From assembly GCA_902554315.1 (NCBI GenBank), contig CACDOF010000001.1, positions 19,894 through 83,893 on the forward strand: DNA of 64,000 nucleotides. Direction: 5' to 3'. Within the stretch, counting starts at the first letter, position 1. Every line of letters starts with the position of its first letter. The notes below the pieces were generated by a model. The model was not told the origin of the DNA and did not search any database. It was given only the letters and a program-made list of their open reading frames with translations. The translations under genes and the position numbers were made by a program. This DNA is from an uncultured Pelagibacteraceae bacterium (GTDB taxonomy: Bacteria > Pseudomonadota > Alphaproteobacteria > Pelagibacterales > Pelagibacteraceae). Of the stretch, positions 1,869 through 34,173 are shown piece by piece.

Positions 1869-2834
1869 CTACCTTTGATATTCAACAAATTTCTTTAAGG
1901 AACTATTTAAAAATTTTTCATAAATTTGACCTTTATTTAAAGTTTTTCTATTCATTAAATATGAGGGGTGCATTTTAAAATCGAAAGATGGCTCAAAAAA
2001 AAATGGAATAGACATTCTTTTAGATCTGTTCCACAAAACACGATGATTTGTTGCTTTAAATTTTCCTTTAGTTAAGTATTCCAAAGCTCTTCCTGTATTG
2101 ACTACAAAAGCCTTTTTATTAAATGGCATATCGTACCACTTTTTATTTTTACGGTTTTGAACTTGTAATCCACCTTTTTTATCCTGGTATAGAACAGTAA
2201 ATATTCCACTATCAACATGTGTTTCACAACCCAGTGCAACACCATCTTGTCTCGAAATTTCCACAGGCCTTCTTTGATTTGGATAGTAATTAAATCTCAA
2301 TGTGCTCAATGTTTTCAGTCTAGAAAAAGCCTGATTTGAAATAGACGGATCTTTTTTATAGTAAATGATTATACTTTTAAAAAGTATTTCGCTTAGGTTA
2401 AAAATATCATCAAAATAATTATTTATTTTTTTAATTGAATGTTCTTTAAAACATTTTTGAAGATTTAAATATTCAATGTATTGGTTTCGAATATTATTTG
2501 AATATTTCTTTGATACTTTTAGGTCTCCTAAATCTAAACCTTCTTTTCCATTCACATCATTAGGAAAATATCCTCTATAAACATTCTTATTTTTTCTATT
2601 CCATTTTTTTGGAGATAATTTTCTTTTATATTCATCAGTCATATTGAAGAATTTATTTCCTACAGTGCATATATTTTTAATATCTTTTGTTTTTAACCCA
2701 TGCCCTACAACTTGAAAAAACCCTATCTCTATACAAGCTTTTTTAATTTCTTGAATAGTTTTTCTAGACTCTTTTGAAATAAATTTTCCATCTAATAGTG
2801 ATGATATATTTATTGTTGGTATATATGATTTCAT
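1869..2834 (-). CDS. Fe(II)/2-oxoglutarate dioxygenase, isopenicillin N synthase-like family
   Basis: IPTINIS...ACIEIGFFQVVGHG N-terminus; HVDSG...HRV...RMS facial triad and 2OG-binding motif. Confidence 0.9.
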   Translation of the reverse strand: MKSYIPTINISSLLDGKFISKESRKTIQEIKKACIEIGFFQVVGHGLKTKDIKNICTVGNKFFNMTDEYKRKLSPKKWNRKNKNVYRGYFPNDVNGKEGLDLGDLKVSKKYSNNIRNQYIEYLNLQKCFKEHSIKKINNYFDDIFNLSEILFKSIIIYYKKDPSISNQAFSRLKTLSTLRFNYYPNQRRPVEISRQDGVALGCETHVDSGIFTVLYQDKKGGLQVQNRKNKKWYDMPFNKKAFVVNTGRALEYLTKGKFKATNHRVLWNRSKRMSIPFFFEPSFDFKMHPSYLMNRKTLNKGQIYEKFLNSSLKKFVEYQR

Positions 2835-3781
2835 TATCTATTAGGTGTATCAGTTGCAATCATCTGACCTCTTACTTTTTCTCTAAAGTAAATATACACA
2901 CCTGCTCCGATGATAATACTTGCTCCAAAAAATGTTCTTGGAACAGGAATAGTTTCAAATAAAATGTAACCTGCTAGCACTGCCCAAACTAAGTATGAAT
3001 ACTCAAATAAAGAGACAACTGAAGGTGATGCAATACTGTAGGCTGTAAATACACAAAAGAAAGAAATTGAAGCAACAATTCCCATAATTAAAACATAAGG
3101 CCAGGCATACGATGGATTAGTAAACCATTCTCTAACTATAAATTGCATTGTAGGATCGGTAAAAGTATTAAATTTGCCGTCACCACTTACAGCAAATATT
3201 ATTAAGCCTGCAATCAACGCAAAAATATAAAGCCAGGACATTTGTGTATAAATATTATCTTTTTGTGAAGTATATTTAGTTATTGTCATTGAAATAGAAT
3301 AACAAAGTGAACAAGCAACAGGAGCTAATTTAAAAAAGTTAAAGTCTTCTAATGTTGGATTTAATACAATTAGCACACCAATAAATCCAACAACAATTGC
3401 ACTCCATCTTCTAATACCTATTTTTTCTTTCAAAAAAATTTTAGCAAAAATAGACATAAAAAATGGACAAGAAAAAAATAGCGCACTTGTCATAGCAAGC
3501 GTCATGAAGGTTAATGAAATATAAAAAAAACTAAAACCAAAGAAAAAACAAACAACTCTCACCAATGTTAAAAATGGATAGTGAGTTTTTAAAGATATTG
3601 TTTTCCTTGTTATAAGAACAAAGCATAATAAAAATATTGTTTGAATAAGTGTTCTTCCAAAATAAAGTTCAAATAAAGCAATATCTTCAAATATAAATTT
3701 TATTAAAGAATCTTGTATTGAAAAAAAAGCCATACCAGTCATTATAAAAAATATGCCTTTGGTATTTTGATTTACGTCCAT
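2834..3781 (-). CDS. DMT/EamA family transporter
   Basis: About 10 hydrophobic helices; LKEKIGIRRWSAIVVGFIGVLIVLNP signature. Confidence 0.9.
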   Translation of the reverse strand: MDVNQNTKGIFFIMTGMAFFSIQDSLIKFIFEDIALFELYFGRTLIQTIFLLCFVLITRKTISLKTHYPFLTLVRVVCFFFGFSFFYISLTFMTLAMTSALFFSCPFFMSIFAKIFLKEKIGIRRWSAIVVGFIGVLIVLNPTLEDFNFFKLAPVACSLCYSISMTITKYTSQKDNIYTQMSWLYIFALIAGLIIFAVSGDGKFNTFTDPTMQFIVREWFTNPSYAWPYVLIMGIVASISFFCVFTAYSIASPSVVSLFEYSYLVWAVLAGYILFETIPVPRTFFGASIIIGAGVYIYFREKVRGQMIATDTPNR

Positions 3782-3816
3782 CAGACACCTATATCAAATC
3801 AGATATGATTATAATA

Positions 3817-5400
3817 TTAATTATTAAGAATGGCTTCAGAACCTTTTTCAGCAATCATAAGGGTAGGGGCATTTAAGTTTGCACTAGGGATTTCAGGAAT
3901 AACCGACGCATCAATTACCCTTAAATTTCCAATTCCATTTACTTTTAAATCTTGATCTACAACTGCCATATCATCCGCTCCCATTTTGCAAGTTCCACAA
4001 GGATGATAAGCGGTATCAGCTTTAGATCTGATATATTCGTTTAATTCATCATCTGACTGAGCATCAAAACCTGGCCCAACTTCATCTCCTGCATGTTCGG
4101 CAAGGGCGGGTTGAGATAGGATTTTTCTTGCAACATGTATACATTCTCTTGTTTGTTTAAGGTCTTCTTCCTCTTTTAAATAATTAAATAAAATTTTAGG
4201 ATAGTCATATGGATTAGATGAATTAAGAGTTATCTCTCCTCTACTTTTTGGATGATTTGGGCTTGCATGCAATTGGTAGCCATGTGAGTCTGGCTCCTCA
4301 AGTCCATGATTTATTACAAAAGATGGAAAAAAATGAAATTGAATATTAGCAACTTTTCTTTCAGGCGAGGATTTAGCAAAACCTCCAGCTTCTAAAAATG
4401 ATTTTGAACATGGTCCAGATTTGAACATAAACCATTGCATACCAGCTAAAATTTTAGGTAGTAATTTTGTATAAGTATAAAGAGTATTTGGCGTTTTACA
4501 TTTTTGCTGTATGTAAGTTTCAAGATGATCTTGTAAATTTTTTCCTACACCTTTTGAATTATGGACTACTTTAATACCATTATCTTTAAGATGTGCTTCA
4601 TCACCAACCCCAGATAACATTAATAATTGAGGGGAATTTATAGATCCTCCGCTTAAAATTACTTCTTTATTTGCATAAATCTTTTCAACTTTATTTTTAA
4701 TCTTTACTTCAAGACCCACAGCTTTTTTTCCTTCAAATAATATCTTTTCTACAAATGAATTTTTTAAAATACTTAAGTTTTTTCTATTTTTTACAGGATT
4801 TAAATAATATTTAGCAACACCTGCTCTTTCACCTTGATGCATTGTAGTATCAAACATACCAAATCCTTCTTGTTCTTTTCCATTCATATCTATATTTGTT
4901 TTGTGACCCGCTTCAGCAGCTGCTTCAATAAATGCTTTAAATAAAGGATTTGAGTTTTTTGATAAATTTATTGGAAGAGGACCTAAAGAGCCTCTAAATT
5001 GATTTTCTCCCTCTGACCAAGTTTCAATTTTTTTAAAGTAGGGAAGTACTTTTTCATAAGACCACTTATTTAAACCAAAATTTTCCCATCTCGTATAATC
5101 ATCTCTGTTTCCTCTAACATAAACCATCCCATTATGAGAAGAACATCCTCCTATCATTTTTCCTCTTGGACAAAATATACGTCTATTATTTAAATATGGT
5201 TCAGGTTCTGAATAATATTTCCAATTATATTTGGGGTCATGCATTGTATAAAGAAGAGCTAATGGCATTTTAACTTTCCAAATATCACTGGATCCACCTG
5301 CCTCAAAAATTGCAACTGAATTATTAGAATTTTCTGATAACCTATTTGCAACTACACATCCGGCAGAACCTGCCCCAACTATAAGATAATCAAAATTCAT
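3817..5400 (-). CDS. betA: Choline dehydrogenase/oxidase (GMC oxidoreductase, BetA-like)
   Basis: FDYLIVGAGSAGCV, PRGKMIGGCSSHNGMVYVRG, VGKNLQDHLE, TAYHPCGTCKMG, ANLNAPTLMIAEK. Confidence 0.8.
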   Translation of the reverse strand: MNFDYLIVGAGSAGCVVANRLSENSNNSVAIFEAGGSSDIWKVKMPLALLYTMHDPKYNWKYYSEPEPYLNNRRIFCPRGKMIGGCSSHNGMVYVRGNRDDYTRWENFGLNKWSYEKVLPYFKKIETWSEGENQFRGSLGPLPINLSKNSNPLFKAFIEAAAEAGHKTNIDMNGKEQEGFGMFDTTMHQGERAGVAKYYLNPVKNRKNLSILKNSFVEKILFEGKKAVGLEVKIKNKVEKIYANKEVILSGGSINSPQLLMLSGVGDEAHLKDNGIKVVHNSKGVGKNLQDHLETYIQQKCKTPNTLYTYTKLLPKILAGMQWFMFKSGPCSKSFLEAGGFAKSSPERKVANIQFHFFPSFVINHGLEEPDSHGYQLHASPNHPKSRGEITLNSSNPYDYPKILFNYLKEEEDLKQTRECIHVARKILSQPALAEHAGDEVGPGFDAQSDDELNEYIRSKADTAYHPCGTCKMGADDMAVVDQDLKVNGIGNLRVIDASVIPEIPSANLNAPTLMIAEKGSEAILNN

Positions 5401-5428
5401 ATTATTTTATCAATAATATTCATGAAGT

Positions 5429-6262
5429 TTATACTGGATGATCACCTTCGATTGCTATTCTATCCATTATTCTTTCATAACCTAGTCCTCTTCCAGGATA
5501 AAAGTCTGCTATTGCAAAATGGATTACACTTCTATTATCCCAAATACAAACTGTATTTTCTGTCCATGTAAATCTACAGGTTAACTCAAGCCTAGATTGA
5601 TGTTCAAATATTTTTTTTAAAATTTCATCGCTTTCTTTTTTATCCATGCCAACTATTTCTTTTGTATAGGTCCAATTGACAAAAAGTATTTTTTTGCCAG
5701 TTTCTGGATGGGTTCTCACGATAGGGTGTTCATTAGAATATTCGTCATAATTTCTTTTTTTATTGCCTTCCATTTTTTTATAACTTTCTATAAAAAATTC
5801 TGCTCCTAGAGAGCTGTGAATAGCTTTTTTGTCTTTAATTTTTTCTTTTATTTCTTCATCTAAAGTTTCCCAGGCTAGTTCCATATTTGAAAAACAAGTA
5901 TCCCCACCAACTGGAGGAATTTTAATTGATTTTAATATGACTGCTTTAGTAGGTTTTGCATTGTAACTCACATCACTATGCCAATTTTCTCCCCATTGAT
6001 TTTGTTCATCTTCAGCTTTAATTATTCTTACTATTTCTGGATGATCATTTAATCCTTTTACATATGCGTGTGTTTCTAAAGGTCCAAATTTCTCTGCTAA
6101 AGCCTTATGTTCTTCAGAATTTATTATTTGGTCTCTAAAAAAAATAACTTTGTGTTCTAATAACAAATCATTAATTTTTTTTATATTTTCATCAGAAGTA
6201 TCTTTCAGATTAATACCTTTAATTTCAGCTCCCAATGCACCTGATAATAGTTTTGTTTCCAT
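5429..6262 (-). CDS. TauD/TfdA-family 2OG dioxygenase (taurine dioxygenase/alkylsulfatase-like)
   Basis: LGAEIKG, WHSDVSY, GGDT, HPIVRTHPETGKK, WDNRSVIH. Confidence 0.9.
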   Translation of the reverse strand: METKLLSGALGAEIKGINLKDTSDENIKKINDLLLEHKVIFFRDQIINSEEHKALAEKFGPLETHAYVKGLNDHPEIVRIIKAEDEQNQWGENWHSDVSYNAKPTKAVILKSIKIPPVGGDTCFSNMELAWETLDEEIKEKIKDKKAIHSSLGAEFFIESYKKMEGNKKRNYDEYSNEHPIVRTHPETGKKILFVNWTYTKEIVGMDKKESDEILKKIFEHQSRLELTCRFTWTENTVCIWDNRSVIHFAIADFYPGRGLGYERIMDRIAIEGDHPV

Positions 6263-6264
6263 GG

Positions 6265-6732
6265 TTATTTTTTTAGCTTACCAGATAATACTAAATTTTC
6301 TGAATTAAAATTCTTTTTATTTTCTTCAATAAATTTATCCATAATTTCTATTTTATCTTGTTCAAACTCAGTAACTTTTCTTTTTTCAAGATCTATATAA
6401 AGGGATAAACTTTCCATAGTTGCAGCAAGTTTCTTTGTTTTTTTTTCGTACATTTCACATCTTAAATGTAATCTTTTTTTATCATGATCAAAGAATTTAC
6501 AAAAAACTTCAACTTCCTCGTTTTCTTTAACTTCATTATTGTATGTGGTACGAGTCTCTACAACCATTGTACTTCTTTTATTAATTTGTGCATTTGCACC
6601 ACCCATATGAAATTTGTTTAGCATTGTTTCCCACGCCTCATCAAAAATTAGCACGTAGTAAGCCATATTCATATGCTCATTATAATCGGTCCAATCTTTA
6701 ATTATTTTTCTAGTTGCAAGATGCACTGACAT
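6265..6732 (-). CDS. cdhB: Hot-dog thioesterase, CdhB-like (betainyl-CoA thioesterase)
   Basis: WTDYNEHMNMAYY and DKKRLHL motifs; sits near cdhC/cdhA. Start moved to ATG 6732, just after the aldolase stop. Confidence 0.7.
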   Translation of the reverse strand: MSVHLATRKIIKDWTDYNEHMNMAYYVLIFDEAWETMLNKFHMGGANAQINKRSTMVVETRTTYNNEVKENEEVEVFCKFFDHDKKRLHLRCEMYEKKTKKLAATMESLSLYIDLEKRKVTEFEQDKIEIMDKFIEENKKNFNSENLVLSGKLKK

Positions 6733-6733
6733 T

Positions 6734-7462
6734 TTAATTTTTATAACTAGGGTCTTCTTGGTCAAGAATTGATCTAATAGCTTTTAAATGTAAATCTTTA
6801 GAGTCGGTTGAATAATCTTCCCATTCTTGAGCAGTTTTTTCTGCAACTTCATCGCTAACTATTTTAAGTTTTTTATTTGTAGATAGAGCAGTTAAATAAG
6901 TCTCGCAAGCTCTTTCAAAATAGTATAATTCATCAAACGCTTCAGCTACGGTTTGGCCAGCTGTTAAAACACCATGATTAGACATTAGCAAAACTTTTTT
7001 ATTTCCAATTTTGGTAGCCATTTTTTCAGACTCTTCTTCAAAACCCATACCACCAAAATCTCTATAAACTCCAACTCTATTAAAAAATCTCATTGAATTT
7101 TGATCTATTGGGGGCAAGGTTGGATCATCTAAAGCTGAAAGAGCTGTTGCATATTTAGAATGAACATGGAGTATACATCTTGCGTGCGGTACTTTTTTAT
7201 GAATTGCTCCATGTATGTATAGTGCTGTTGGGTCAACTAGTTCAGGTTTATTTTTAAGCTCATCCATCTTACTTTTTTCAACTAAGAATAAGTCACTTGC
7301 TTTTATATTGCTGAAGTGCATACCAGTACCATTTACGTAAAAATCTTCATTTGAACCTGGCACACATACGCTAAAATGATTTGCAATTGCTTCATGCATG
7401 TTCAATTTTGCAGTCCATCTAAAAACAGCCGCTAAATCTTCCAAAATTTCTAATTTATCCAT
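6734..7462 (-). CDS. Class II aldolase/adducin family protein
   Basis: EAIANHFS, IHGAIH, CILHVH, LMSNHGV metal-binding histidines. Confidence 0.9.
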   Translation of the reverse strand: MDKLEILEDLAAVFRWTAKLNMHEAIANHFSVCVPGSNEDFYVNGTGMHFSNIKASDLFLVEKSKMDELKNKPELVDPTALYIHGAIHKKVPHARCILHVHSKYATALSALDDPTLPPIDQNSMRFFNRVGVYRDFGGMGFEEESEKMATKIGNKKVLLMSNHGVLTAGQTVAEAFDELYYFERACETYLTALSTNKKLKIVSDEVAEKTAQEWEDYSTDSKDLHLKAIRSILDQEDPSYKN

Positions 7463-7494
7463 AAGCTTTATGATAGTATAAATATAAAAATAAA

Positions 7495-8382
7495 ATGAAC
7501 AATAAAGTTTTTATCTCATGTGCGGTTACTGGATCTGGCGACACTGCCGCTAAACACCCAGATTTGCCTAAAACACCAGAGCAAATCGCAACTGCAGCAA
7601 TAGAAGCGGCAAAAGCAGGTGCTGCTATAGCACATATTCATGTAAGAGAAGAGGATGGAACACCTAGTAGAAGATTAGAATTATATAAGGAAGTTGTAGA
7701 TAGAGTAAGATCCAGCGAAACAGATGTTATATTAAATTTAACAACTGGCATGGGTGGTGATTTAGATATTGGACAAGGAGCAAATCCATTAGAATTTGGA
7801 CCTTTCACAGATATGGCAAATGTTATGGAAAGAATTGCAAATGCAGAACAATTTTTACCTGAAATTTGTACTTTAGATTGTGGCACTCTAAATTTTGGAG
7901 ATAGCTCTGTAATTACAGTAAATACCCCAAACGATTTAAGAAAAGCTGCAAAAAAATTACAAGAAATAAAAGTTAAACCAGAAATCGAAGCATTTGATTT
8001 AGGAAATATGTGGTTTGGCGCACAACTTTACAAAGAAGGATTGCTTGACGATCCTCCAATGTTTCAAATGTGTTTAGGAATTCCTTGGGGAGCTCCAGCG
8101 ACACCCTTAGCAATGCAAGCAATGAAAGATATTATGCCAGAAGAGGGTGTGTGGTCTGGTTTTGCTATATCAAGAAATGAAATGCCATTTGTTGCTCAAA
8201 CTGTCGTTATGGGAGGAAATCCAAGAGTAGGTCTTGAAGATAATTTATATTTATCAAAAGGAAAATTAGCAACCAATGCTCAATTAGTTGAAAAAGCAAT
8301 TAGAATCGTAACAGATCTTGGGGCTTCTATTATGACCCCAGAAGAAACAAGAGAAAAACTTAAACTTGTAAAACACAAGTAA
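7495..8382 (+). CDS. cdhC: Beta-keto acid cleavage enzyme (BKACE), 3-dehydrocarnitine cleavage enzyme-like
   Basis: ISCAVTG, AHIHVR, PEICTLDCGTLNFG, RVGLEDN; translationally coupled to carnitine dehydrogenase. Confidence 0.85.
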   Translation: MNNKVFISCAVTGSGDTAAKHPDLPKTPEQIATAAIEAAKAGAAIAHIHVREEDGTPSRRLELYKEVVDRVRSSETDVILNLTTGMGGDLDIGQGANPLEFGPFTDMANVMERIANAEQFLPEICTLDCGTLNFGDSSVITVNTPNDLRKAAKKLQEIKVKPEIEAFDLGNMWFGAQLYKEGLLDDPPMFQMCLGIPWGAPATPLAMQAMKDIMPEEGVWSGFAISRNEMPFVAQTVVMGGNPRVGLEDNLYLSKGKLATNAQLVEKAIRIVTDLGASIMTPEETREKLKLVKHK

Positions 8383-9326
8383 TGTCAAATATAAAAAAAG
8401 TGGCAGTAGTAGGCACTGGTGTTATTGGTGCTGGATGGATAATAAGATTTTTGGCCCATGGAAAAATTGTACATGCTTACGATAAAAATTTAAAATTAAA
8501 AAGAAATTTATTATTAGAAATAAAAAGGACCTGGCCTTTTGTTAAGAAACTTTTTAATAAAAAAAAATTAGATTTAAAAAATTTTAAATGTTTTATATCT
8601 TTGAAAGAAACTTTAAATGATGTTGACTTTGTTCAAGAATGCGCTCCAGAAAATTATTCAATTAAAATTAAATTAATTAAATTAATATCGAAAAGTATAA
8701 AAAAAAATATTATAATTTCTTCAAGTTCTTCTGGTTTACTACCTTCAAAAATTTTTTCTAAATCCTTACACCCTGAAAGAGGAATAATTGGACATCCTTT
8801 TAATCCTGTTTACTTGTTACCACTTGTCGAAATAGTTCCTGGAAAAAAAACAAATAAGAAATATTTAAACATTGCAAAAAAATTTTATCAATCAATTTCT
8901 ATGAATCCAATAATAGTCAAAAAAGAATTACCAGGTTATTTATCAGATAGACTTCAAGAAGCTTTATGGAGAGAAGCTCTTCATATAATAAACGAAGGTT
9001 ATGCAACAACTGAGGACCTTGATAGAGCTATAGAAGACGGACCTGGATTAAGATACTCTTTAATGGGAACATTTTTGACGTTTCATCTTGCTGGAGGAAA
9101 AACAGGCATGAAGCATATGTTGGAACAGTTCGGACCAGCATTAAAATTACCTTGGACAAAATTAAAAGCTCCTCTATTGACAAAAAAATTATCAAATAGA
9201 CTTATTCATGGAACAAAAAAACAAGCTAAAGGAAAGTCAGTTAGTATGCTATCAAATATAAGAGATGAGTATCTTGTAAATCTTCAAAAATTAAGAAAAA
9301 AATATGAAATCAAAATAAGAAAATGA
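8382..9326 (+). CDS. cdhA: L-carnitine 3-dehydrogenase
   Basis: GTGVIGAGW, SSSSGLLPS, GHPFNPVYLLPLVE, DRLQEALWRE, QFGPALKLPWTKL. Confidence 0.9.
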   Translation: MSNIKKVAVVGTGVIGAGWIIRFLAHGKIVHAYDKNLKLKRNLLLEIKRTWPFVKKLFNKKKLDLKNFKCFISLKETLNDVDFVQECAPENYSIKIKLIKLISKSIKKNIIISSSSSGLLPSKIFSKSLHPERGIIGHPFNPVYLLPLVEIVPGKKTNKKYLNIAKKFYQSISMNPIIVKKELPGYLSDRLQEALWREALHIINEGYATTEDLDRAIEDGPGLRYSLMGTFLTFHLAGGKTGMKHMLEQFGPALKLPWTKLKAPLLTKKLSNRLIHGTKKQAKGKSVSMLSNIRDEYLVNLQKLRKKYEIKIRK

Positions 9327-9736
9327 CTATGGAAAAAAAGTTTGTAACAAAAACTGGAGGATGTATTTGTGGAGAAATAATTTTTAAAGTTAAGCTAGAT
9401 GAAGTTCCAAGAGTTTTTAATTGTCATTGTGTAGATTGTAGAAAGAAAATAGGAGGAATGATTACAATTATTGATCTAAGAGAAGGGGCAATTGATATTG
9501 ATAAAACTAAACTAGGTATTTTTGAACATAAGGCCGGAAGTGGTCAAATAATCAAAAAACATTATTGTAAAAAATGTACTGCACCAGTTTTAACTTATGT
9601 TGAAAAATATAATAAATATTATCTTTATGCTGGAATGTTAGATGATATTAGTATTTTAAAAAAAGCTAAAAATATTTGGTATAAAGACTCTCATTTTCCA
9701 TTCATGGAAATATCTGACGAAAAGTTAAAAACTTAA
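9323..9736 (+). CDS. GFA (glutathione-dependent formaldehyde-activating) family protein
   Basis: GGCICG, CHCVDC and CKKC zinc motifs. Confidence 0.85.
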   Translation: MTMEKKFVTKTGGCICGEIIFKVKLDEVPRVFNCHCVDCRKKIGGMITIIDLREGAIDIDKTKLGIFEHKAGSGQIIKKHYCKKCTAPVLTYVEKYNKYYLYAGMLDDISILKKAKNIWYKDSHFPFMEISDEKLKT

Positions 9737-9739
9737 ATT

Positions 9740-10525
9740 TTAATCCATTCTAAAAGTATTTCCATCAACACTAATAATTTGTCCCGAAACTCTTGAAGCA
9801 TCATCTGAAATTAAATATCCACATGTTTTTGCAATATCCTCTTCATAAATCCAGGTATTCATCGATGTCATTGATATATATTCTTTTTCTACAAATTTTT
9901 TTGGAACCTTTAAAAACTTTGCTTTAGCGCTTATTACTCTATTCATTCTATCACCTTTAATAGTGCCAGGACAGATTGCATTAACTCGTATTTTAAATTT
10001 TCCTAATTCCATAGCTAAAGTCTTTGTGACTCCAACCACAGCCCATTTACTAGCTGCATAAGGAGACCTTAATGGGAAACCATGTATTCCTGCCGTAGAT
10101 GATAAATTAATTATTGATCCACCTTTATTTTTTTTAAGCATAGGAATTGCAAGTTTTGAAAAATAAAAATGACTTATTACATTTATTTTAAGAGTTTGCT
10201 CCCAATCTTTTGACTTAAGTTTTTCCAAAGTTCCAGTAGGACCGGCAATACCAACATTGTTAATAAGTGCATCAACTTTTTTTGTTTTTTTTAAAATTTT
10301 TGTAAAAAAATTGGAAACTTCTTTTTCATGAGAAGCATCACATTCATAAGAAAAAAGTTTCTTATTACTCAAAGGATGCTTTTTTGATTTATTAATAAAT
10401 TTTTTGTTTACATCACAAATAAATACAGTTGCACCGTTTTTTAGACACTCTTTTGTAGTTGTCCATCCAATACCAGAGGCCCCTGCTGAAATTATAATTT
10501 TTTTATTTTTTAGTTTTAAACTCAC
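9740..10525 (-). CDS. Short-chain dehydrogenase/reductase
   Basis: AGASGIG, NNVGIAGP, YAASK, RVNAICPG; GTG start. Confidence 0.9.
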   Translation of the reverse strand: MSLKLKNKKIIISAGASGIGWTTTKECLKNGATVFICDVNKKFINKSKKHPLSNKKLFSYECDASHEKEVSNFFTKILKKTKKVDALINNVGIAGPTGTLEKLKSKDWEQTLKINVISHFYFSKLAIPMLKKNKGGSIINLSSTAGIHGFPLRSPYAASKWAVVGVTKTLAMELGKFKIRVNAICPGTIKGDRMNRVISAKAKFLKVPKKFVEKEYISMTSMNTWIYEEDIAKTCGYLISDDASRVSGQIISVDGNTFRMD

Positions 10526-10530
10526 TATTT

Positions 10531-11382
10531 TTAATCAGCCAAACCATCTGATCTAGCTTTATTCCTTTCTATGTGTATTGGTAAAACTTTACCATAAATT
10601 GCTTTCGAGTGCTCAGGGGTATTTACTCTCCAGGGGTCCAAAACATACGCTGGAATACACATATATCTAGGTAGATTTCCTTCTATTTTTGTTACTCTGT
10701 GCAAAGTAAATCTTCCTTTAAAAATTTGTAAATCGCCAGGTTCTAATTTTAGTTGTTTAACTCTTGCTCGATCACCATTAATTACTTTTCTGACTTCATC
10801 AAAGTTTTCATCACCTGGTTTTCTTATATTTGGACAATATTCAAATATTCCACCATTTTCTGGCTTTTGTATCATCAAACTTAATGTAAATTCACAACTA
10901 TCAAAATGCCAAGGTAAAATTCCTTCAGGTCTCATTACATTATATGCATGACAAGCTAATGGATCTGCCCATCTATAAATTGGAGAAATTCCTAAGCATG
11001 AAGATACAAATTTTAAAAGCTCATCAGTTTCATAGAGAAACTTCATTTCAGAGTCTTTGGGGAAACAATCAGAATTTAAATAACCATTATAACGATTCAT
11101 AAATAATCTTTTTGGATGATCTTTAGGAAGAGCAGGGTCATCTTCAGAATATAAATAAGCATTAATACTTTCTTTTGACATATAAACTTCATCAATTTGT
11201 TTTTCCAATTCATCATTCATAATTTTAAGAGATTTAGGCAAAATAAAATTTGGAAGTGTTGAACAGCTATCTTCGTCTAGTTCTGATTTACACTTTTCTA
11301 AAATTTTTTTTATTTCTGGAGATTTTAAGTTATGTATTGGATATTTATTTAGGTTAACTATATCTTTTAATCTTTTTGTCAT
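10531..11382 (-). CDS. Fe(II)/2OG dioxygenase, HalD/BesD-like family; HxD triad indicates a hydroxylase
   Basis: LPWHFD...PENGGIFEYCPNIR...PGDLQIFKGRFTLHRVT...R. Confidence 0.65.
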   Translation of the reverse strand: MTKRLKDIVNLNKYPIHNLKSPEIKKILEKCKSELDEDSCSTLPNFILPKSLKIMNDELEKQIDEVYMSKESINAYLYSEDDPALPKDHPKRLFMNRYNGYLNSDCFPKDSEMKFLYETDELLKFVSSCLGISPIYRWADPLACHAYNVMRPEGILPWHFDSCEFTLSLMIQKPENGGIFEYCPNIRKPGDENFDEVRKVINGDRARVKQLKLEPGDLQIFKGRFTLHRVTKIEGNLPRYMCIPAYVLDPWRVNTPEHSKAIYGKVLPIHIERNKARSDGLAD

Positions 11383-11398
11383 AACTATTAGAATAAAA

Positions 11399-12424
11399 TT
11401 ATGATTTTGATAAAGAATTTTGCAACTCTTTATTAGTTATAAAACCTTTTGTATTTCCTTGTTTATCAACCACCTCAACATTAGAATTGCTACAGACAAC
11501 TTGAGGTAGAAATTCCTCAATAAATTGATCTTCTTCTACTTTTAATAAATTACTTTTATCAATTCCATCTGCGTCATTAACTGATGTCATTATAATTTTT
11601 GCTTTAATTACTTTTGTTCTATTTACATCTTTAACAAAAGCAGCAACATATTCATCTGCTGGATTCATTATTATATCTACTGGGGTTCCTACTTGTACAA
11701 GTTTTCCCGCATTTAAAATTCCAATGTGATCTCCTAGTCTTAAAGACTCATCTAAGTCGTGAGTTATAAATACTATAGTTTTTTTTAATTCTGCCTGTAA
11801 ATCTAATAATTGTTTTTGCATATCGCTTCTAATCAGCGGATCTAAAGCAGAAAATGCTTCGTCCATTAACATTATATCTGTATCTGTAGCTAAAGCTCTT
11901 GCAAGACCAACTCTTTGTTGCATACCCCCTGAAAGTTGAGCAGGATATTGATTTTCAAATCCTATTAAACCAACTGACTCAATTTTTTCCATTGCAACTG
12001 AATTTCTTTTTTCAATTTCAATTCCTTGCATCTCTAAACCATAACCTACATTTTGTAATACAGTTTTATGTGGAAATAACCCAAATCTTTGGAAAACCAT
12101 GCTCATTTTTTGTCTTCTAAAATTTATAAGCTCATCTTTTTTAAGAGTTGTTACATCTTTTCCTTCTACTAGAATTTGTCCAGCCGTCGGATCTATCAAT
12201 CTATTTAGATGTCTAATTAATGTAGACTTTCCCGAACCAGAAAGCCCCATACAAACAAATGTCTCTCCCTCTTCTATTTTAAGAGTCACATCATCAAGCC
12301 CAACAGTGTGGCCTGTTTTATCTAAGACTTCTTCTTTGCTAGCTCCATCTTTAACCATCTGAAGTACATCTGAGGGTTTTGGTCCAAAAATTTTATAAAC
12401 ATTATTTATTTCTATTTTTGACAT
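11399..12424 (-). CDS. Quaternary-amine (ProV/OpuAA-type) ABC transporter ATPase, copy 1
   Basis: GLSGSGKS, LSGGMQQRVGLARALA, MDEAFSALDPLIR, ITHD. Confidence 0.92.
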   Translation of the reverse strand: MSKIEINNVYKIFGPKPSDVLQMVKDGASKEEVLDKTGHTVGLDDVTLKIEEGETFVCMGLSGSGKSTLIRHLNRLIDPTAGQILVEGKDVTTLKKDELINFRRQKMSMVFQRFGLFPHKTVLQNVGYGLEMQGIEIEKRNSVAMEKIESVGLIGFENQYPAQLSGGMQQRVGLARALATDTDIMLMDEAFSALDPLIRSDMQKQLLDLQAELKKTIVFITHDLDESLRLGDHIGILNAGKLVQVGTPVDIIMNPADEYVAAFVKDVNRTKVIKAKIIMTSVNDADGIDKSNLLKVEEDQFIEEFLPQVVCSNSNVEVVDKQGNTKGFITNKELQNSLSKS

Positions 12425-12556
12425 TGTTATTATTTATGTTTCTTATAATAAATTCTATTTCTACCAAAACTTCAAAGTAAATATAAAAAAATTAAATATT
12501 TATTTTACAACTAATAATTGAATTGCAATAAATAGTCTTTTATATAATCATCAAAT

Positions 12557-13681
12557 ATGAGTTCGATTTCAAAAATAGAAAAAAATAGCTCCTATTTAAA
12601 AATTATCTGGAATGACGGGGAGGAAAGTAAGTTTAATTATATGTGGTTAAGAGATAATTGTCCTACAGCTCACGACAAAGATTCAAGACATAGAATGTTT
12701 AACATTTTAGAAGTTTCTCAAGAAATTAATCCAAAAAACTATTCTATAAATAATGATGGTAAATTAGAAATAGAATGGAGCGAAGGAAATCACAAAAGTT
12801 ATTATGATCCTAAATGGCTAAGAGATAATTGTTACACTATAAAAAATAATAACAAATATGTTTCGCCTTACCAACTTTGGGACAAATCTTTAGAAAATAA
12901 TTTTGACTCAATTTGTATAAATTATGATGAGATTCTTTCTTCTGATGAAGGTTTAATAAAATGGCTGGAACTACTTCATCATAAAGGTATTGCGATTGTT
13001 AAGAATTCACCGGTAGAAAAAAAATCAGCTTTTCCAGTTTTAAACAGAATAAGTCATACTAGAGAAACTTTTTTTAATACACCTTTTGAGGTTATTAATG
13101 TTCCAAAACCGAACAATTCTGCATATACCGCTCATGCCTTAAGAAATCACATGGATTTACCCTGGTTTGAGTTACCACCTGGCTATCAATTTCTACATTG
13201 CTTAATTAATGCCGCAAAAGGAGGAGACTCTTCAGCAATAGATGGATTTGCAGTTGCAGATTATTTGAGAAAAAATGAAAAAGAAATTTTTGAAACTTTA
13301 GTATCTATTCCTCTTAAATTTAGAGACAAAGATTATACTCAAGAGTCACACAGAAGTTTTCATGCGCCAGCAATAAGCTTAACAAAAGATAAAGACTACC
13401 ACGATATTAGATTCAGCGTTGCTACAATGGACGCTTTAGATTGTCATCCAGATGTTATGGAAAAAGTTTATAAAGCACATCATAGATTCGGAAATCTTTT
13501 ACATGATGATAAATTTCAAATAAATTTTAGATTAGAACCTGGAGATATTTTTTCTTTTAATAATAGACGGGTATTACATGGAAGAACAGCTTTTGATCCA
13601 AACTCAGGACATAGACATCTACAAGGCTACTATATGGATCGGGATGAGATTATAGGAAGATTAAATTTTTTAAAGAAATAA
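12557..13681 (+). CDS. Gamma-butyrobetaine dioxygenase-like (BBOX/TMLH family)
   Basis: N-terminal WLRDNC...WSEGNHKSYY zinc domain; HMDLP; NRRVLHGRTAFDPNSGHRHLQGYYMD. Confidence 0.85.
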   Translation: MSSISKIEKNSSYLKIIWNDGEESKFNYMWLRDNCPTAHDKDSRHRMFNILEVSQEINPKNYSINNDGKLEIEWSEGNHKSYYDPKWLRDNCYTIKNNNKYVSPYQLWDKSLENNFDSICINYDEILSSDEGLIKWLELLHHKGIAIVKNSPVEKKSAFPVLNRISHTRETFFNTPFEVINVPKPNNSAYTAHALRNHMDLPWFELPPGYQFLHCLINAAKGGDSSAIDGFAVADYLRKNEKEIFETLVSIPLKFRDKDYTQESHRSFHAPAISLTKDKDYHDIRFSVATMDALDCHPDVMEKVYKAHHRFGNLLHDDKFQINFRLEPGDIFSFNNRRVLHGRTAFDPNSGHRHLQGYYMDRDEIIGRLNFLKK

Positions 13682-13712
13682 AAAAAAAGGGCTCTGTTTT
13701 CACAAAGCCCTT
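13681..13712 (-). terminator. Intrinsic terminator after the betaine-type SBP gene, probably bidirectional
   Basis: Minus strand AAGGGCTTTGT-GAAA-ACAGAGCCCTT followed by a T-run, between convergent genes. Confidence 0.85.
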
Positions 13713-13736
13713 AATTTAAATTAATTTAAAAAAGTG

Positions 13737-14747
13737 TTATTTTAACCAAGACTTCCATTTATTTGGATTATTGTCTAACCACTCATTAACTACTTCTTTA
13801 ACATCTCTTTTTTTAATATCGACTTCAACTAACATTTTAGCTTGGTCAATATTTTGTAAAGACATATTCTCGAAGAATTTTTTAGCATCAGCGTGTTCAG
13901 GTTTAGCAAATGTAGCTGGATTACCATAGTTCATTGTATAATCCTTTGCCCAACCAGTTGCTGGCCATCCTTTTGTTCCACAATCTTTCCAGTTTCCTGC
14001 TTCAGTAAATGTGTCAGGATCACAAACTTTGTGATCTGGAAGTTGAACTCCAACCATGTCAAATTCACCAAAGAACCAGTGCGGTGACCATAGATATAAC
14101 ATGAACGGTTCTTTTCTCATATAAGCTGCTTTTGCTTCTGCAATAGCTGCCGCTTCAGTACCTAGCTCATCTGCTTGGAAATCAATTCCTAAAAGATCAA
14201 GTCTTTTTTGGTCATGACAGTTCCAACCTGCAACAGGACATGCTATCAATCTTCCTCTATTACCAGTCTCGATTGTAGCAAATTCTTTTTTATGATTGTT
14301 TAAATCTTTCCAAGTTTTGATGCCAAACTTTTCAGCAGCGTATCTTGGTATCCAATAATCTGAAAGACCAATGATACCAGCTGTACCCAAAAGATCTACG
14401 CTTCCATCTCCGCTGTAAGAGCCCACAACTTTGCCTTCGTATATTAAATCTTCATTAAGCATAACTGAGTCTGCCTCAGCATAACTTGGCCAACTTTCAC
14501 AAGCAAAATCTAATTCACCAGCAGCAATTGCTTCCCATAAGCCAGTTCCTGATGGAAATACGGTTTGTTTAATTTTATAACCATATTCTCTTTCAAGAAT
14601 TGCTACAGCTACTTCACATGTAATTATCCCACCAGTCCAATCTGCTATTGCTGCATGAAGTCTTTTAGCTGCATTAGCATGACCAAAAGTTCCAATTAAC
14701 AGCACTAAAGATAGAATTAGTGTTGATATTTTTTTTGATAACTTCAT
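13737..14747 (-). CDS. Glycine betaine/quaternary-amine ABC substrate-binding protein (ProX/OpuAC/TmoX superfamily)
   Basis: Signal peptide, DWTG, ESWP, CPVAGWNC, YLWSPHW; strong SD (GAGGGG). Confidence 0.85.
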   Translation of the reverse strand: MKLSKKISTLILSLVLLIGTFGHANAAKRLHAAIADWTGGIITCEVAVAILEREYGYKIKQTVFPSGTGLWEAIAAGELDFACESWPSYAEADSVMLNEDLIYEGKVVGSYSGDGSVDLLGTAGIIGLSDYWIPRYAAEKFGIKTWKDLNNHKKEFATIETGNRGRLIACPVAGWNCHDQKRLDLLGIDFQADELGTEAAAIAEAKAAYMRKEPFMLYLWSPHWFFGEFDMVGVQLPDHKVCDPDTFTEAGNWKDCGTKGWPATGWAKDYTMNYGNPATFAKPEHADAKKFFENMSLQNIDQAKMLVEVDIKKRDVKEVVNEWLDNNPNKWKSWLK

Positions 14748-14846
14748 TTTTTATTTCCCCTCTTTTAATTAATTAAAACTTATTTTAGATCAAAAACGCA
14801 TGTAATGTAAAGGTGTCAAAAAACTCTAATCTTTTCTTTAGAATGG

Positions 14847-16961
14847 TTATAAACCCAAGGCTTCTCTTTGTTTTTTTGTCCAAGCAAGCGAAATTCTATC
14901 AATAATTATAGCCAATAAAACAATTCCTATACCTGCAGCAAGTCCTCTTCCAGTATCAGACCTAGCTAAACCATTGAAAACTTCTAATCCTAGACCCTTT
15001 CCTCCAATTAGAGGTGTTACAATTTGCATTGCAAAAGCCATTATAACTGTTTGATTAAATCCTATTACCAAACTTGGAATTGCTAGAGGAAATTTAACTT
15101 TATTTAAAGTTTGTAAAAGTGTACCTCCAAAGGATCTTGATACCTCAGAATATGTACCTGATACTTGTGTTAAACCTAATGCTGTTAATCTTATAATTGG
15201 TGGGATCGAATAAATAACTGTTGCTAAGACTGCTGAAACAATACCTCCACCAAAAAACATTAAAACTGGAATTAGATAACAGAAATAAGGAAGTGTTTGC
15301 ATCGCATCCAACACAACATTTTGAATATTTCTAAATCTCTCGTTGTAAGAAGCTATTATTCCAAGAGGTACTCCAATAACAAAACACAAAATAACAGATA
15401 CCAAAACAGAAGAAAGAGTTATCATCGACTGGGGCCAAATTCCACAAGCTCCAATAAAAAGCAACAACAGTGCAGTTATAATTGCAAATCTTATACCGAC
15501 AGTAAAGTATGAGATTGCAACAAACACACCCAATGTATACCACCATGGAATATGTGTTAAAAAGATATCTAGAGGACGTAAAAGATTAAGATACACAAAT
15601 GCCCTTAAACCTTTCGTAAAAGCAATAAATCCAGGATTCACAGTCAAAGCTTCTACTGAATTTGTTATTGGTTGACGTATTGACAATCTCCATTCCTCAG
15701 GAAAAGAACCAAAGGTGAAAATATAAGAGTCGACAAAAGCAATTGCAAAAAAAATAAAAAAGGATGGTATTATATAATATCGTCTACTTATAAATTCTCC
15801 AATATCATTACCAATCTTCTTATTAAAAATTGAAATTAAAAATTCAGAAATGTATGCAGTAAAATTTGTAATTTTTAAGCAAATATAATTTATAAAATTA
15901 TAACTTAAACTTAATGGTTTTTCTAAGATTCTAGCAATTGAGTATTTTTCCCAACTTTGGGGAAGTAAATAAAATTTTTGAACATCAGATGGTAGTTTTT
16001 CTACAGATTTGCTAAAAGACATACTAAATCTATCAAACATTATAGCCATGAACAAAATACAAAGTCCACCTTCCATTGCCCATCCAACATCGAGTCTTCT
16101 TATTGCTTGCCAAACTTGTCCACCTATGCCTTCGGCCCCTATGAAACATGCCAATACGACAAGAGCAAGAGCCATCATTATAACTTGATTAATTCCCATC
16201 ATTATACTTGGCAAAGATAAAGGTATTTTTATTTTAAATAAAAGTTGCAATTTGCTTGAACCAAATGAAGTAGCCGATTCAATTGTTTCGCTAGAAACTT
16301 GCCTTATACCTGTATTTGTTAGTCTTATTATTGGCGGCATTGCATAAATCATTGTTGCTAAAATTGCAGGAGCTCCACCAATTCCAAAAAAGAATAAAGC
16401 TGGAAATAGATATACAAATGCAGGCATTACTTGCATAGTATCTAAAATCGGTTTCATGAAATTTTCAAATTTATCACTTTGAGAACATAGAACTCCTAAT
16501 ATGACTCCAAAAAAAACACACATTAAAACTGACAAGCCCATTAAGGCCACAGTCTGCAAAGATGGTTCCCACATTCCTGTTGCGCCCCAAAAATAAACTA
16601 CAAATAGTGAATATAATCCTAACCTTAAACCACCAGCTATCAAACAAGGTAAAAAAATAATTGAGGTAATTAATATCCAAGGTGAGTCAATTAAAAAATC
16701 CTCAACAAAGTAATAAGCTCCTTTAATATAACTTGCGATAATCTTAGTTATCCATCTGTAATTTTTTTTAAGATAATCTTCGCCTTCATTTACCCATGCA
16801 GTAAAAGTAAATTCATCTGTTACGACTTTGGGAAATTTTGATGGACCCTCACTTTGGGATGACAACCAAAGTGAAACTAGGAATATTAGCAATATTATAG
16901 AATATGTTACTAATTTTTTTGATTGATTAGGTTTCTCTAAAATTTCTACACCATTTGCCAT
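14847..16961 (-). CDS. ProW/OpuAB-type ABC permease with two fused membrane domains
   Basis: Two repeats: PILDTMQVMPAFVYLFP...PPIIRLTNTGIRQV and VLDAMQTLPYFCYLIP...PPIIRLTALGLTQV. Confidence 0.9.
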   Translation of the reverse strand: MANGVEILEKPNQSKKLVTYSIILLIFLVSLWLSSQSEGPSKFPKVVTDEFTFTAWVNEGEDYLKKNYRWITKIIASYIKGAYYFVEDFLIDSPWILITSIIFLPCLIAGGLRLGLYSLFVVYFWGATGMWEPSLQTVALMGLSVLMCVFFGVILGVLCSQSDKFENFMKPILDTMQVMPAFVYLFPALFFFGIGGAPAILATMIYAMPPIIRLTNTGIRQVSSETIESATSFGSSKLQLLFKIKIPLSLPSIMMGINQVIMMALALVVLACFIGAEGIGGQVWQAIRRLDVGWAMEGGLCILFMAIMFDRFSMSFSKSVEKLPSDVQKFYLLPQSWEKYSIARILEKPLSLSYNFINYICLKITNFTAYISEFLISIFNKKIGNDIGEFISRRYYIIPSFFIFFAIAFVDSYIFTFGSFPEEWRLSIRQPITNSVEALTVNPGFIAFTKGLRAFVYLNLLRPLDIFLTHIPWWYTLGVFVAISYFTVGIRFAIITALLLLFIGACGIWPQSMITLSSVLVSVILCFVIGVPLGIIASYNERFRNIQNVVLDAMQTLPYFCYLIPVLMFFGGGIVSAVLATVIYSIPPIIRLTALGLTQVSGTYSEVSRSFGGTLLQTLNKVKFPLAIPSLVIGFNQTVIMAFAMQIVTPLIGGKGLGLEVFNGLARSDTGRGLAAGIGIVLLAIIIDRISLAWTKKQREALGL

Positions 16962-17043
16962 AGTTTATATTGAGTTTAAATAAATTATTTTACTTTTAAA
17001 GGAAAATATTGTCTATTTTAATTATAATATTTTATTAATTATC

Positions 17044-18090
17044 ATGAGTAATAATGAAAAAATTACATGCTCAAATATTTGGAAACTTTTTGGGCCTGAC
17101 GAAAAAAGAATTATCAAAGAATTAGATAAAAGTTTATCTATAAAAGAGGTTCAAGAAAAGACAGGTCATGTCGTTGCAGTAAAAGATGTTAGCTTTTCAA
17201 TACAAAAGGGAGAAACATTTGTTGTTATGGGTTTGTCCGGAAGTGGCAAATCAACATTAGTAAGATGTATTTCGAGATTAATTGAGCCAACATCAGGAAC
17301 GGTTAAAATGGATGATACTGATGTAACCAAAATGAGTGCCAAAGATTTGCTGGATCTCAGAAGGAATAAAATGAGTATGGTATTTCAACATTTTGGTCTT
17401 TTTCCCCACAGAACAGTAGTAGATAATATTGGCTATGGTTTAGAAATAAGAGGAAGTAAAAAACAAGAGCGTATTGATAAATCAATGGAAGTTCTAAAAA
17501 TGGTTGGTTTAGACGGTTGGCAAAATAATTATCCAAGAGAATTATCAGGCGGTATGCAACAAAGAGTTGGTCTAGCCAGAGCATTAGCTGTCGATCCTGA
17601 AATTTTAATTTTCGACGAACCTTTTTCCGCTTTAGATCCTCTGATTAGAAGAGAGATGCAAGATGAGCTTTTAAAAATTCAAGAAAAATTGCAGAAGACA
17701 ATGGTTTTTATTACCCACGATTTTTTAGAAGCAATTAAAATGGGAGATCATATTGCAATTATGAAAGATGGAGAAGTTTCTCAAGTAGGAACCCCAGAAG
17801 AAATTGTTGCAAATCCTAAAGATCAATATGTAAAAGACTTTTGTGAAGATGTTCCAAAATACAAAGTTTTAAGTGCAAGTAAAGTAATGAGAGAAGAATG
17901 TTGTGAAGATACAAAAAAAATGTTCAAAAATGGATCTAATAATATTGATCAAAATTCAAAGATTGAAACTTTAATAGATAAACTTGTAGATACAGATCAG
18001 AAATTTCCAGTAGTTAATAGCGAGACAGGGGAGCTAGTTGGTGAAATTGACAGAGCAATTGTCATGAAATCAATGAAATCTACTAATTAA
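17044..18090 (+). CDS. Quaternary-amine (ProV/OpuAA-type) ABC transporter ATPase, copy 2
   Basis: GLSGSGKS, LSGGMQQRVGLARALA, FDEPFSALDPLIRREMQ, ITHD. Confidence 0.92.
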   Translation: MSNNEKITCSNIWKLFGPDEKRIIKELDKSLSIKEVQEKTGHVVAVKDVSFSIQKGETFVVMGLSGSGKSTLVRCISRLIEPTSGTVKMDDTDVTKMSAKDLLDLRRNKMSMVFQHFGLFPHRTVVDNIGYGLEIRGSKKQERIDKSMEVLKMVGLDGWQNNYPRELSGGMQQRVGLARALAVDPEILIFDEPFSALDPLIRREMQDELLKIQEKLQKTMVFITHDFLEAIKMGDHIAIMKDGEVSQVGTPEEIVANPKDQYVKDFCEDVPKYKVLSASKVMREECCEDTKKMFKNGSNNIDQNSKIETLIDKLVDTDQKFPVVNSETGELVGEIDRAIVMKSMKSTN

Positions 18091-34167: not shown

Positions 34168-34173
34168 AAAAAT

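Follow-up and report, generated by a model that had tools for sequence, protein, structure and literature searches.

Genes and operons of the locus

The stretch analysed here (the window, 64,000 nt; positions 19,894 to 83,893 of contig CACDOF010000001.1 in the GenBank assembly GCA_902554315.1) comes from an uncultured member of the Pelagibacteraceae (SAR11), whose assembly of 958 kb in 44 contigs is 65% complete and tightly packed, with a GC content of about 30%. Between 1869 and 18090 it carries a locus dedicated to quaternary amines, whose core can be read as a route from gamma-butyrobetaine and carnitine to glycine betaine; this reading, proposed in a first-pass annotation of the sequence, is supported, and the locus matches a published genomic island (PMC12421898). 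Genes were identified by open reading frame (ORF) calling and with Pfam and NCBIfam models, which recovered every gene named in that annotation, at the coordinates given there. They are as follows:

1869-2834, minus strand: IPNS/EFE-like Fe(II)/2-oxoglutarate (2OG) oxygenase (Pfam DIOX_N and 2OG-FeII_Oxy; best PDB matches)
2834-3781, minus strand: EamA/DMT transporter (Pfam), the 'DMT' of the published island
3817-5400, minus strand: GMC oxidoreductase, choline dehydrogenase-like (NF002550, 724 bits against a cutoff of 605; betA model TIGR01810, 657 against 732)
5429-6262, minus strand: TauD/TfdA-family dioxygenase, the 'BBOX(2)' of the published island
6265-6732 (ORF 6265-6765), minus strand: 4HBT-fold thioesterase, putative betainyl-CoA thioesterase (Pfam 4HBT_2)
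6734-7462, minus strand: class II aldolase/adducin-fold metalloenzyme of the PRK07490 type, first gene of the minus-strand operon
7495-8382, plus strand: BKACE, putative 3-dehydrocarnitine cleavage enzyme (Pfam, 314 bits)
8382-9326, plus strand: L-carnitine dehydrogenase-like (CDH-like) 3HCDH enzyme (best match NF005471)
9323-9736, plus strand: GFA-family zinc protein, an optional member (Pfam)
9740-10525, minus strand: SDR, the constant last gene of the importer operon (Pfam/NCBIfam; sister loci)
10531-11382, minus strand: HalD/BesD-fold Fe(II)/2OG hydroxylase, single copy, between ProV and SDR (Pfam HalD)
11399-12424, minus strand: ProV-type ABC transporter ATPase (85-90% identity at the same position in loci of the same arrangement)
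12557-13681, plus strand: GBBH/TmpA-family hydroxylase (GBBH-like_N and TauD), the 'BBOX(1)' of the published island
13737-14747, minus strand: OpuAC-type substrate-binding protein (SBP) (Pfam/NCBIfam)
14847-16961, minus strand: fused double ProW permease (Pfam/NCBIfam)
17044-18090, plus strand: second ProV ATPase (Pfam/NCBIfam)
32743-35121, minus strand: betaine-aldehyde-dehydrogenase-like (BADH-like) aldehyde dehydrogenase (ALDH, 32.7-34.2 kb) and beta-hydroxyacid dehydrogenase (HADH) (tblastn, 74% and 83% identity to the island copies; NCBIfam names)

The clustering of four Fe(II)/2OG dioxygenases, to which the first-pass annotation had drawn attention, is real: the HxD...H...R motif is intact in all of them, and within 11.8 kb lie four of the at least eight such genes in the assembly (six PF02668, one PF03171 and one HalD-like), a density far above that of random placement. 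The gene spacing is consistent with three operons. The minus-strand run of the aldolase-like, thioesterase, TauD-like, GMC oxidoreductase, EamA and IPNS-like genes has gaps of 1 to 35 nt, and at its IPNS-like end it is continued, after a further 58 nt, by genes for an LLM monooxygenase and an Xsc/ALS-like thiamine diphosphate (ThDP) enzyme. The most probable start codon of the thioesterase gene is the ATG at 6732, which lies 1 nt past the aldolase stop and gives a protein of 155 amino acids, matching the length of the orthologs; the aldolase-like enzyme is translationally coupled to the thioesterase. The divergent plus-strand run of BKACE, CDH-like and GFA genes, with overlaps of 1 and 4 nt, starts 32 nt from the aldolase gene, and the minus-strand run of ProV, HalD-like hydroxylase and SDR, with gaps of 16 and 5 nt, converges on it. 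Divergent from this ProV gene across 132 nt is the GBBH-like gene, followed by those for the OpuAC SBP, the fused ProW and the second ProV. The ALDH and HADH genes of the island are displaced from the GBBH-like gene by about 20 kb in the present genome.

Enzymes of the proposed core route

CDH, BKACE and thioesterase are encoded together in the window, so that the families behind the names cdhA, cdhB and cdhC given in the first-pass annotation are all present, while the names themselves rest on context and on scores below cutoff. The best-scoring family for the CDH-like protein is the L-carnitine dehydrogenase equivalog NF005471, which it matches with 344 bits (cutoff 414). BKACE is 77–94% identical across SAR11 and 53–58% identical to BKACEs adjoining carnitine dehydrogenases in other Pseudomonadota, and one carnitine dehydrogenase adjoining such a BKACE outside SAR11 scores 659 bits against the same cutoff. 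The thioesterase matches the C-terminal thioesterase domain of the fused carnitine dehydrogenase model PRK07531. For the GBBH-like protein, the scores against BBOX (TIGR02409; 319 bits, cutoff 414.75), TmpA (275 bits, cutoff 400) and TMLD (198 bits, cutoff 268) are all below the cutoffs; its Fe ligands are H198-x-D200...H341, and among solved structures it matches TmpA (6npb) with 181 bits and BBOX1 with 165 bits.

The HalD-fold hydroxylase

The hydroxylase encoded between ProV and SDR scores 40.4 bits against Pfam HalD (PF23169; cutoff 26) and carries the label HalD/BesD family in a protein atlas. Its AlphaFold model (pLDDT 96) has HalD, HalB and BesD as top Foldseek matches and is also near a lysine hydroxylase, with TM scores of 0.6–0.7 and 12–18% identity over this whole set. 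The residues W158-H159-F-D161, H228 and R239 (the 2OG Arg) are invariant in 56 relatives. Since the site is HxD and not HxG/A, the protein is a hydroxylase, and a reading as halogenase was rejected. Moreover, Arg97 is invariant in a 10-sequence alignment of close relatives, and in a profile alignment to HalB its segment falls in the carboxylate-binding hairpin, around Arg83 of HalB; this position would fit a carboxylate substrate and does not identify which one. A lysine-like substrate, such as the first-pass annotation named for relatives of BesD, cannot be inferred at the identity given above to the lysine-acting enzymes.

A search with the 10-sequence alignment yielded 80 species-level loci with an ortholog, all in Pelagibacteraceae. 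The most frequent context (39/80) is a betaine/dimethylglycine demethylation cluster (DMGDH, methyltransferase, M24, two small genes, hydroxylase, enoyl-CoA hydratase), followed by the arrangement of the window, in which ProV, hydroxylase and SDR stand beside CDH-BKACE and the aldolase (20/80), and by a position directly upstream of a CDH ortholog (14/80). Three loci combine the hydroxylase and CDH with an aldolase paralog, Ald2 (in two of the three; 32% identity), and with an FrhB-like gene (also in two of the three), and the other four have other contexts. The usual hydroxylase slot, from a nucleotidyltransferase-like gene to the enoyl-CoA hydratase gene, is an empty 72-bp spacer in the present genome (G000:C1:151427-151871, outside the window); the single copy is relocated, not duplicated. 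Outside SAR11, where 18 loci from a phylum sample of 400 genomes were examined, the hydroxylase family abuts a DddP-like M24 protein in five (M24 scores of 318–345 bits against a cutoff of 600). The pairing of hydroxylase and DddP-like M24 protein, which extends from SAR11 (L017, L030) to high-GC Pseudomonadota (L131-L135), is the broadest pairing seen. In one non-SAR11 genus, the hydroxylase-family genes contain a single in-frame TGA (G264:C33:218503-219300, G284:C12:116784-117581, G316:C1:700279-701079 and G384:C35:24967-25770), which may represent a shared pseudogene, a sequencing feature or recoding.

Linkage of the hydroxylase and the aldolase across genomes

Each protein was searched in 201 Pelagibacteraceae genomes, of which 36 complete genomes of the same genus were taken as a subset. 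The HalD-like hydroxylase was found in 49 of the 201 genomes, the GBBH-like protein in 45, the CDH-like protein in 30, BKACE in 29 and the PRK07490-type aldolase in 11. The distributions of CDH and BKACE are nearly identical, and the aldolase is confined to genomes with both, save one genome that is 56% complete. Among the complete genomes the aldolase is present in eight, all of which have CDH and BKACE, and it lies 1.6 to 8 kb from CDH. The hydroxylase occurs in five of these eight, against 4.7 expected by chance, and it is inside the island in one of the five and 80–110 kb away in four; moreover, in 15 complete genomes the hydroxylase is present while CDH and BKACE are both absent. Canonical islands contain the aldolase and lack the hydroxylase, and no PRK07490-type aldolase is near the hydroxylase in 60 of the 80 loci. 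Within the window, hydroxylase and aldolase belong to separate transcription units, with the opposite-strand BKACE-CDH-GFA operon in between. In a second genus, BKACE/GBBH-like and hydroxylase/CDH are about 50 kb apart.

The first-pass annotation had offered co-occurrence with the cdh genes as a check on its proposal. Within SAR11, the link between the aldolase and cdh was borne out, as was a link to a CDH ortholog for about half of the hydroxylase loci, whereas a specific link between hydroxylase and aldolase was not. In the phylum sample, the PRK07490-type aldolase was found above cutoff in 29 of the 400 genomes and the hydroxylase family in 20; none of the conclusions depends on G583, an unpublished genome in this sample. 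Linkage of either gene to cdh fell away there: CDH, BKACE or thioesterase was within 10 kb of the aldolase in none of 20 non-SAR11 loci, and cdh genes adjoined the hydroxylase in none of the 18. Neighbour clustering of the 20 aldolase loci revealed no conserved metabolic partner and was noisy, with spurious ORFs from high-GC DNA. Furthermore, a trimethyllysine module of the eukaryotic type is not found, as the TMLD model stays below cutoff, no pyridoxal 5'-phosphate (PLP) enzyme is present among the ORFs from 1 to 24 kb of the window, and only the ALDH is there.

The aldolase-like, TauD-like and IPNS-like enzymes

The aldolase-like protein scores 333 bits against PRK07490 (cutoff 260) and is also above the Pfam cutoff, while its scores against the sugar-phosphate aldolases fucA (35 bits, cutoff 400) and RhaD, the rhamnulose-1-phosphate aldolase (26 bits, cutoff 401), are far below. 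Its best solved relatives are 3ocr, 4xxf, NovR, TqaM and adducin, that is, the adducin-like branch. Three metal-binding His residues (HxH and a third His) are invariant among the aldolase paralogs, of which there are three types in SAR11, each adjoining a different hydroxylase. The type of the window occurs with the thioesterase and the TauD-like gene; Ald2 lies between HalD-like genes and CDH; and Ald3 abuts a GBBH-like gene in complete genomes without CDH and BKACE, next to a BADH-like ALDH. The Ald3 loci in complete Pelagibacter genomes are L103:8960-10827, L104:9350-11232 and L105:9362-11244, where a beta-hydroxyacid dehydrogenase is also beside them. We know of no PRK07490/adducin-like member with a betaine substrate, and nothing relevant came up when the literature was searched for class II aldolases linked to dehydrocarnitine metabolism. 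In some type III islands, a CitE/RipC-like CoA-ester C-C lyase (L071:16084-16944; 245 bits against a cutoff of 375), which is absent from the window, lies between the aldolase-like and thioesterase genes. An FrhB/FdhB-like protein of 404–406 amino acids, with the fold of the F420-hydrogenase beta-subunit, travels with hydroxylase paralogs, Ald2, CDH and SDR (L004:10681-11901, L018:6807-8021, L009:13265-14485 and L012:5091-6311).

The TauD-like dioxygenase scores 225 bits against the taurine dioxygenase model NF007104 (cutoff 313) and is equally close to RdpA-type dioxygenases; with scores below the cutoffs, a genuine TauD or BBOX identity was dropped for the enzymes of the window. In several sister islands, a 178-amino-acid HD-domain oxygenase of the PhnZ/TmpB type is encoded within 5 nt downstream of the TauD-like gene. 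Such a gene is absent after the TauD-like gene of the window and was not found in the 65%-complete assembly, and a phosphonate cleavage of the TmpA/TmpB type was therefore dropped for the window. The pair in the sister islands may be a further oxidative C-P cleavage pairing beside PhnY*/PhnZ and TmpA/TmpB. There the TauD-like gene, the HD oxygenase gene and a GMC oxidoreductase gene form a triplet with a 5-nt gap and a 4-nt overlap (L009:6067-9016; also in L014, L022, L106 and L108). The IPNS-like oxygenase, with the motif H206-x-D208...H264...R, is a constant island member and is 62–87% identical in sister loci.

Uptake genes, the GFA gene and library contigs

The OpuAC SBP, the fused ProW and the second ProV are 84–89% identical in loci of the same arrangement, and the ProV at 11399-12424 is an orphan ATPase that has neither a permease nor an SBP to itself; two different ATPase subunits may serve the importer. 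The two ProV ATPases of the window (11399-12424 and 17044-18090) are 48% identical to each other.

Contigs of four sequencing runs, three of them metatranscriptome libraries, were mapped to the window; neither the depth of such contigs nor the parts left uncovered by them say anything on the level of expression. The GFA gene follows CDH only in some island variants, and a contig from metagenome DNA joins 9322 to 9740, skipping exactly this gene, with 36 nt on the shorter side of the joint; populations with and without the GFA gene therefore coexist. Contig joints skipping the hydroxylase (10512 to 11610 and 10520 to 12475) were discarded, as their sides are shorter than 30 nt. The contigs from the RNA libraries cover parts of most window genes, with the greatest depth over the SBP in two RNA libraries, and bridge two junctions, aldolase-thioesterase and CDH-GFA; they indicate presence only and are no proof of operon structure or induction.

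Interpretation of the locus

Considering the gene content, the layout and the distribution of these genes, we assume that the window is probably one variant of a SAR11 quaternary-amine island, which consists of separable modules and not of one linear pathway. Uptake would be provided by the OpuAC SBP, the fused ProW permease and the two ProV ATPases. In the core module, to judge from families and context, the GBBH-family hydroxylase would make a 3-hydroxy trimethylammonium acid, most simply L-carnitine from gamma-butyrobetaine, the CDH-like enzyme would oxidise it to the 3-keto acid, BKACE would cleave the latter with acetyl-CoA into betainyl-CoA and acetoacetate, and the thioesterase would release glycine betaine from betainyl-CoA. 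A choline-type branch would be formed by the GMC oxidoreductase and the BADH-like ALDH 20 kb downstream, and the aldolase-like, TauD-like and IPNS-like enzymes, of which the last closes the operon, would be accessory. The HalD-fold hydroxylase would be a portable single-copy gene, which in most SAR11 lies within the betaine/dimethylglycine demethylation cluster; most likely it would hydroxylate a further carboxylate-bearing onium osmolyte, and the SDR or CDH would then oxidise the product. Nothing points to trimethyllysine as its substrate, and the hydroxylase and the aldolase-like enzyme do not make up a dedicated pair.

Several observations weigh against this modular reading. None of the enzymes reaches the equivalog cutoffs for BBOX, L-carnitine dehydrogenase or TauD. 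By sequence, the best solved relative of the GBBH-like protein is TmpA, slightly nearer than BBOX. Aligned to human BBOX, it keeps Asn191 and Tyr194, with positions 177 and 181 occupied by Phe and position 292 by Ser; in BBOX1, Asn191 and Asn292 bind the substrate carboxylate, and Tyr177, Trp181 and Tyr194 form the aromatic cage. The same GBBH-like gene is present in 13 complete genomes without CDH or BKACE, in which the carnitine product would have no onward route under the proposed scheme. The SDR could equally act on acetoacetate or D-carnitine. Moreover, outside SAR11 the hydroxylase and aldolase families do co-occur at the level of genomes, as 17 of 20 hydroxylase genomes also have the aldolase, against about 1.5 expected, and four such co-occurrences fall in four different bacterial families, which hints at a link that separable modules leave unexplained. 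The co-occurring genes are almost never near each other, and a cdh pair is found elsewhere in the genome in three of five non-SAR11 genomes with both families. The pattern may reflect a shared pathway or merely the large osmolyte toolkits of marine heterotrophs.

The proposal of the first-pass annotation, that the HalD/BesD-like hydroxylase and the class II aldolase hydroxylate and then cleave trimethyllysine or another long-chain betaine to gamma-butyrobetaine for the BBOX/cdh route, could draw on this non-SAR11 co-occurrence, on the presence of both genes in the island at 20 of the 80 hydroxylase loci, on their direct adjacency in one partial genome (L010), and on a hydroxylase fold that is that of lysine- and ornithine-acting enzymes. 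Nevertheless, it is very improbable: the two genes belong to separate operons in the window, show no enrichment within the genus, occur one without the other in the canonical islands and in most hydroxylase loci, and outside SAR11 almost never stand close to each other and are not near cdh. Furthermore, it is known that cleavage of a 3-hydroxy-alpha-amino acid requires PLP, and the locus has no PLP enzyme; the solved relatives of the aldolase are structural-genomics proteins, fuculose-1-phosphate aldolase, NovR and TqaM of the decarboxylase/oxygenase type, and adducin, and the hydroxylase is remote from the lysine enzymes in sequence. What survives of the hydroxylate-then-cleave logic, in a looser form, is seen in sister lineages, where other paralogs of both families are adjacent and a dehydrogenase stands beside them (H/H2-Ald2-CDH-FrhB), and in the genome-level co-occurrence outside SAR11; for the pair in the window it is not supported. 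A broader form of the idea would give each of the HalD-like, GBBH-like and TauD-like hydroxylases a class II aldolase-fold metalloenzyme as partner, which would split or decarboxylate the onium acid once it is hydroxylated; this form is doubtful and has in our view a small chance of being right. Carnitine, for example, would give betaine aldehyde and acetate, and the BADH-like ALDH would then form glycine betaine. The position of Ald3 against a GBBH-like gene in genomes without CDH and BKACE, with ALDH and beta-hydroxyacid dehydrogenase alongside, is compatible with this, as are the position of Ald2 between hydroxylase and CDH and that of the window copy at the head of the operon holding the TauD-like gene. 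If true, it would mean a CoA-independent shunt in SAR11, parallel to CDH/BKACE, and a new reaction class for the aldolase fold.

Alternatively, with a precursor such as delta-valerobetaine, the hydroxylase and the SDR might produce a second 3-keto trimethylammonium acid, which BKACE and the thioesterase would shorten, or they might act on gamma-butyrobetaine if the GBBH-like enzyme is TmpA-like. ProV, hydroxylase and SDR do form a tight unit convergent on CDH, the hydroxylase is directly upstream of a CDH ortholog, or one to two genes before it, at 17 further loci, BKACE-H2-Ald2-CDH-FrhB is a single gene run in L108, and the conserved Arg of the hydroxylase family is in the carboxylate-binding hairpin. 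However, at 39 of the 80 hydroxylase loci neither a dehydrogenase nor BKACE is in the vicinity, 15 complete genomes with the hydroxylase lack both CDH and BKACE, and its conserved non-SAR11 neighbour is the DddP-like M24 protein and not a dehydrogenase, so that we regard this route as possible and yet unlikely. It is also quite unlikely that there is no common pathway at all and that the four dioxygenases, acting on unrelated substrates (betaine, phosphonate/sulfonate, osmolytes), are merely packed together in recombination-prone SAR11 islands. The modules do stand apart in other genomes, as in the second genus with its distance of about 50 kb, in sister islands the TauD-like gene is coupled to one for an HD oxygenase of the PhnZ/TmpB type, the LLM monooxygenase and the Xsc/ALS-like ThDP enzyme close the same operon, and the phylogeny of the published island is incongruent with that of core genes (PMC12421898). 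On the other hand, the order of the core genes is the same in different genera, overlaps and gaps of 1–35 nt couple the genes tightly, and the content is dominated by betaine-type transporters and betaine-forming enzymes.

SAR11 outnumbers all other marine heterotrophs, and seawater offers quaternary amines such as glycine betaine, carnitine, gamma-butyrobetaine and choline as major labile sources of carbon, nitrogen and methyl groups. The existence of the island and its likely output of glycine betaine are already published, and the variant bearing the hydroxylase is real and widespread. Our analysis adds a module map of the island and a hydroxylase-carrying variant that is common in single-cell genomes, and it removes an attractive analogy to carnitine biosynthesis in eukaryotes, which has no support. 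Which osmolytes SAR11 can funnel into betaine would be defined by the substrates of four candidates, namely the HalD-fold hydroxylase, the PRK07490-type aldolase-like enzyme, the TauD-like/HD pair and the FrhB-like protein.

Comparison with known systems

The closest known system is the 'Arctic SAR11 genomic island' of 17–20 genes described in mBio in 2025 from cultures such as uisw_090, with HADH, ALDH, LGL, GPDP, BBOX(1), ABC transporter SBP/permease/ATPase, ADH, CDH, BKACE, class II aldolase, acyl-CoA thioesterase, SMR, BBOX(2), CHDH and DMT, which its authors read as serving glycine betaine uptake and production only (PMC12421898). Five complete genomes from the genus of the window (L012, L014, L015, L016 and L022) show precisely this gene order in our reconstruction. 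The window shares with it ten core families in the same order (DMT, CHDH, BBOX(2), thioesterase, aldolase, BKACE, CDH, SDR as its 'ADH', ProV and BBOX(1)), again beside ABC genes of the betaine type. Unlike it, the window has the HalD-fold hydroxylase and GFA, both missing from the published 17-gene table. In addition, it has no SMR gene, has another SBP and a fused double permease, and has its ALDH and HADH displaced to 32.7–35.1 kb. Its arrangement is common in single-cell genomes (20 of the 80 loci) and thus extends beyond the cultured Arctic strains.

In Pseudomonas aeruginosa, the cdhCAB route converts carnitine to glycine betaine by L-carnitine dehydrogenase, BKACE and betainyl-CoA thioesterase (cited in PMC9321204). 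The three families are likewise adjacent in the window, and the thioesterase is similar to a domain that many carnitine dehydrogenases carry as a fusion, whereas the window genes are split over two divergent operons, the aldolase-like gene heads the operon of the thioesterase, and the CDH-like protein is below its equivalog cutoff (344 against 414 bits). With TmpA and human BBOX1, the GBBH-like protein has in common the N-terminal domain, the TauD-fold core and the Fe ligands; it differs in scoring below both cutoffs and in the replacement of BBOX Asn292 by Ser and of Tyr177 and Trp181 by Phe, and, unlike the TmpA/TmpB system, which converts 2-trimethylaminoethylphosphonate to glycine betaine, the present genome was not found to contain an HD oxygenase. 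The HalD-fold hydroxylase resembles the halogenases BesD, HalB and HalD and the lysine hydroxylase (6nie, 7u6j, 7u6h and 7jsd) in its fold and its hairpin Arg, and is distinct from them in its HxD site, its low identity, its longer N-terminal region and its catabolic osmolyte contexts, as theirs are biosynthetic clusters. The aldolase-like protein, finally, has its best matches in the adducin-like branch (3ocr, NovR and TqaM; PRK07490), which it matches above cutoff and with which it shares the three metal-binding His residues.

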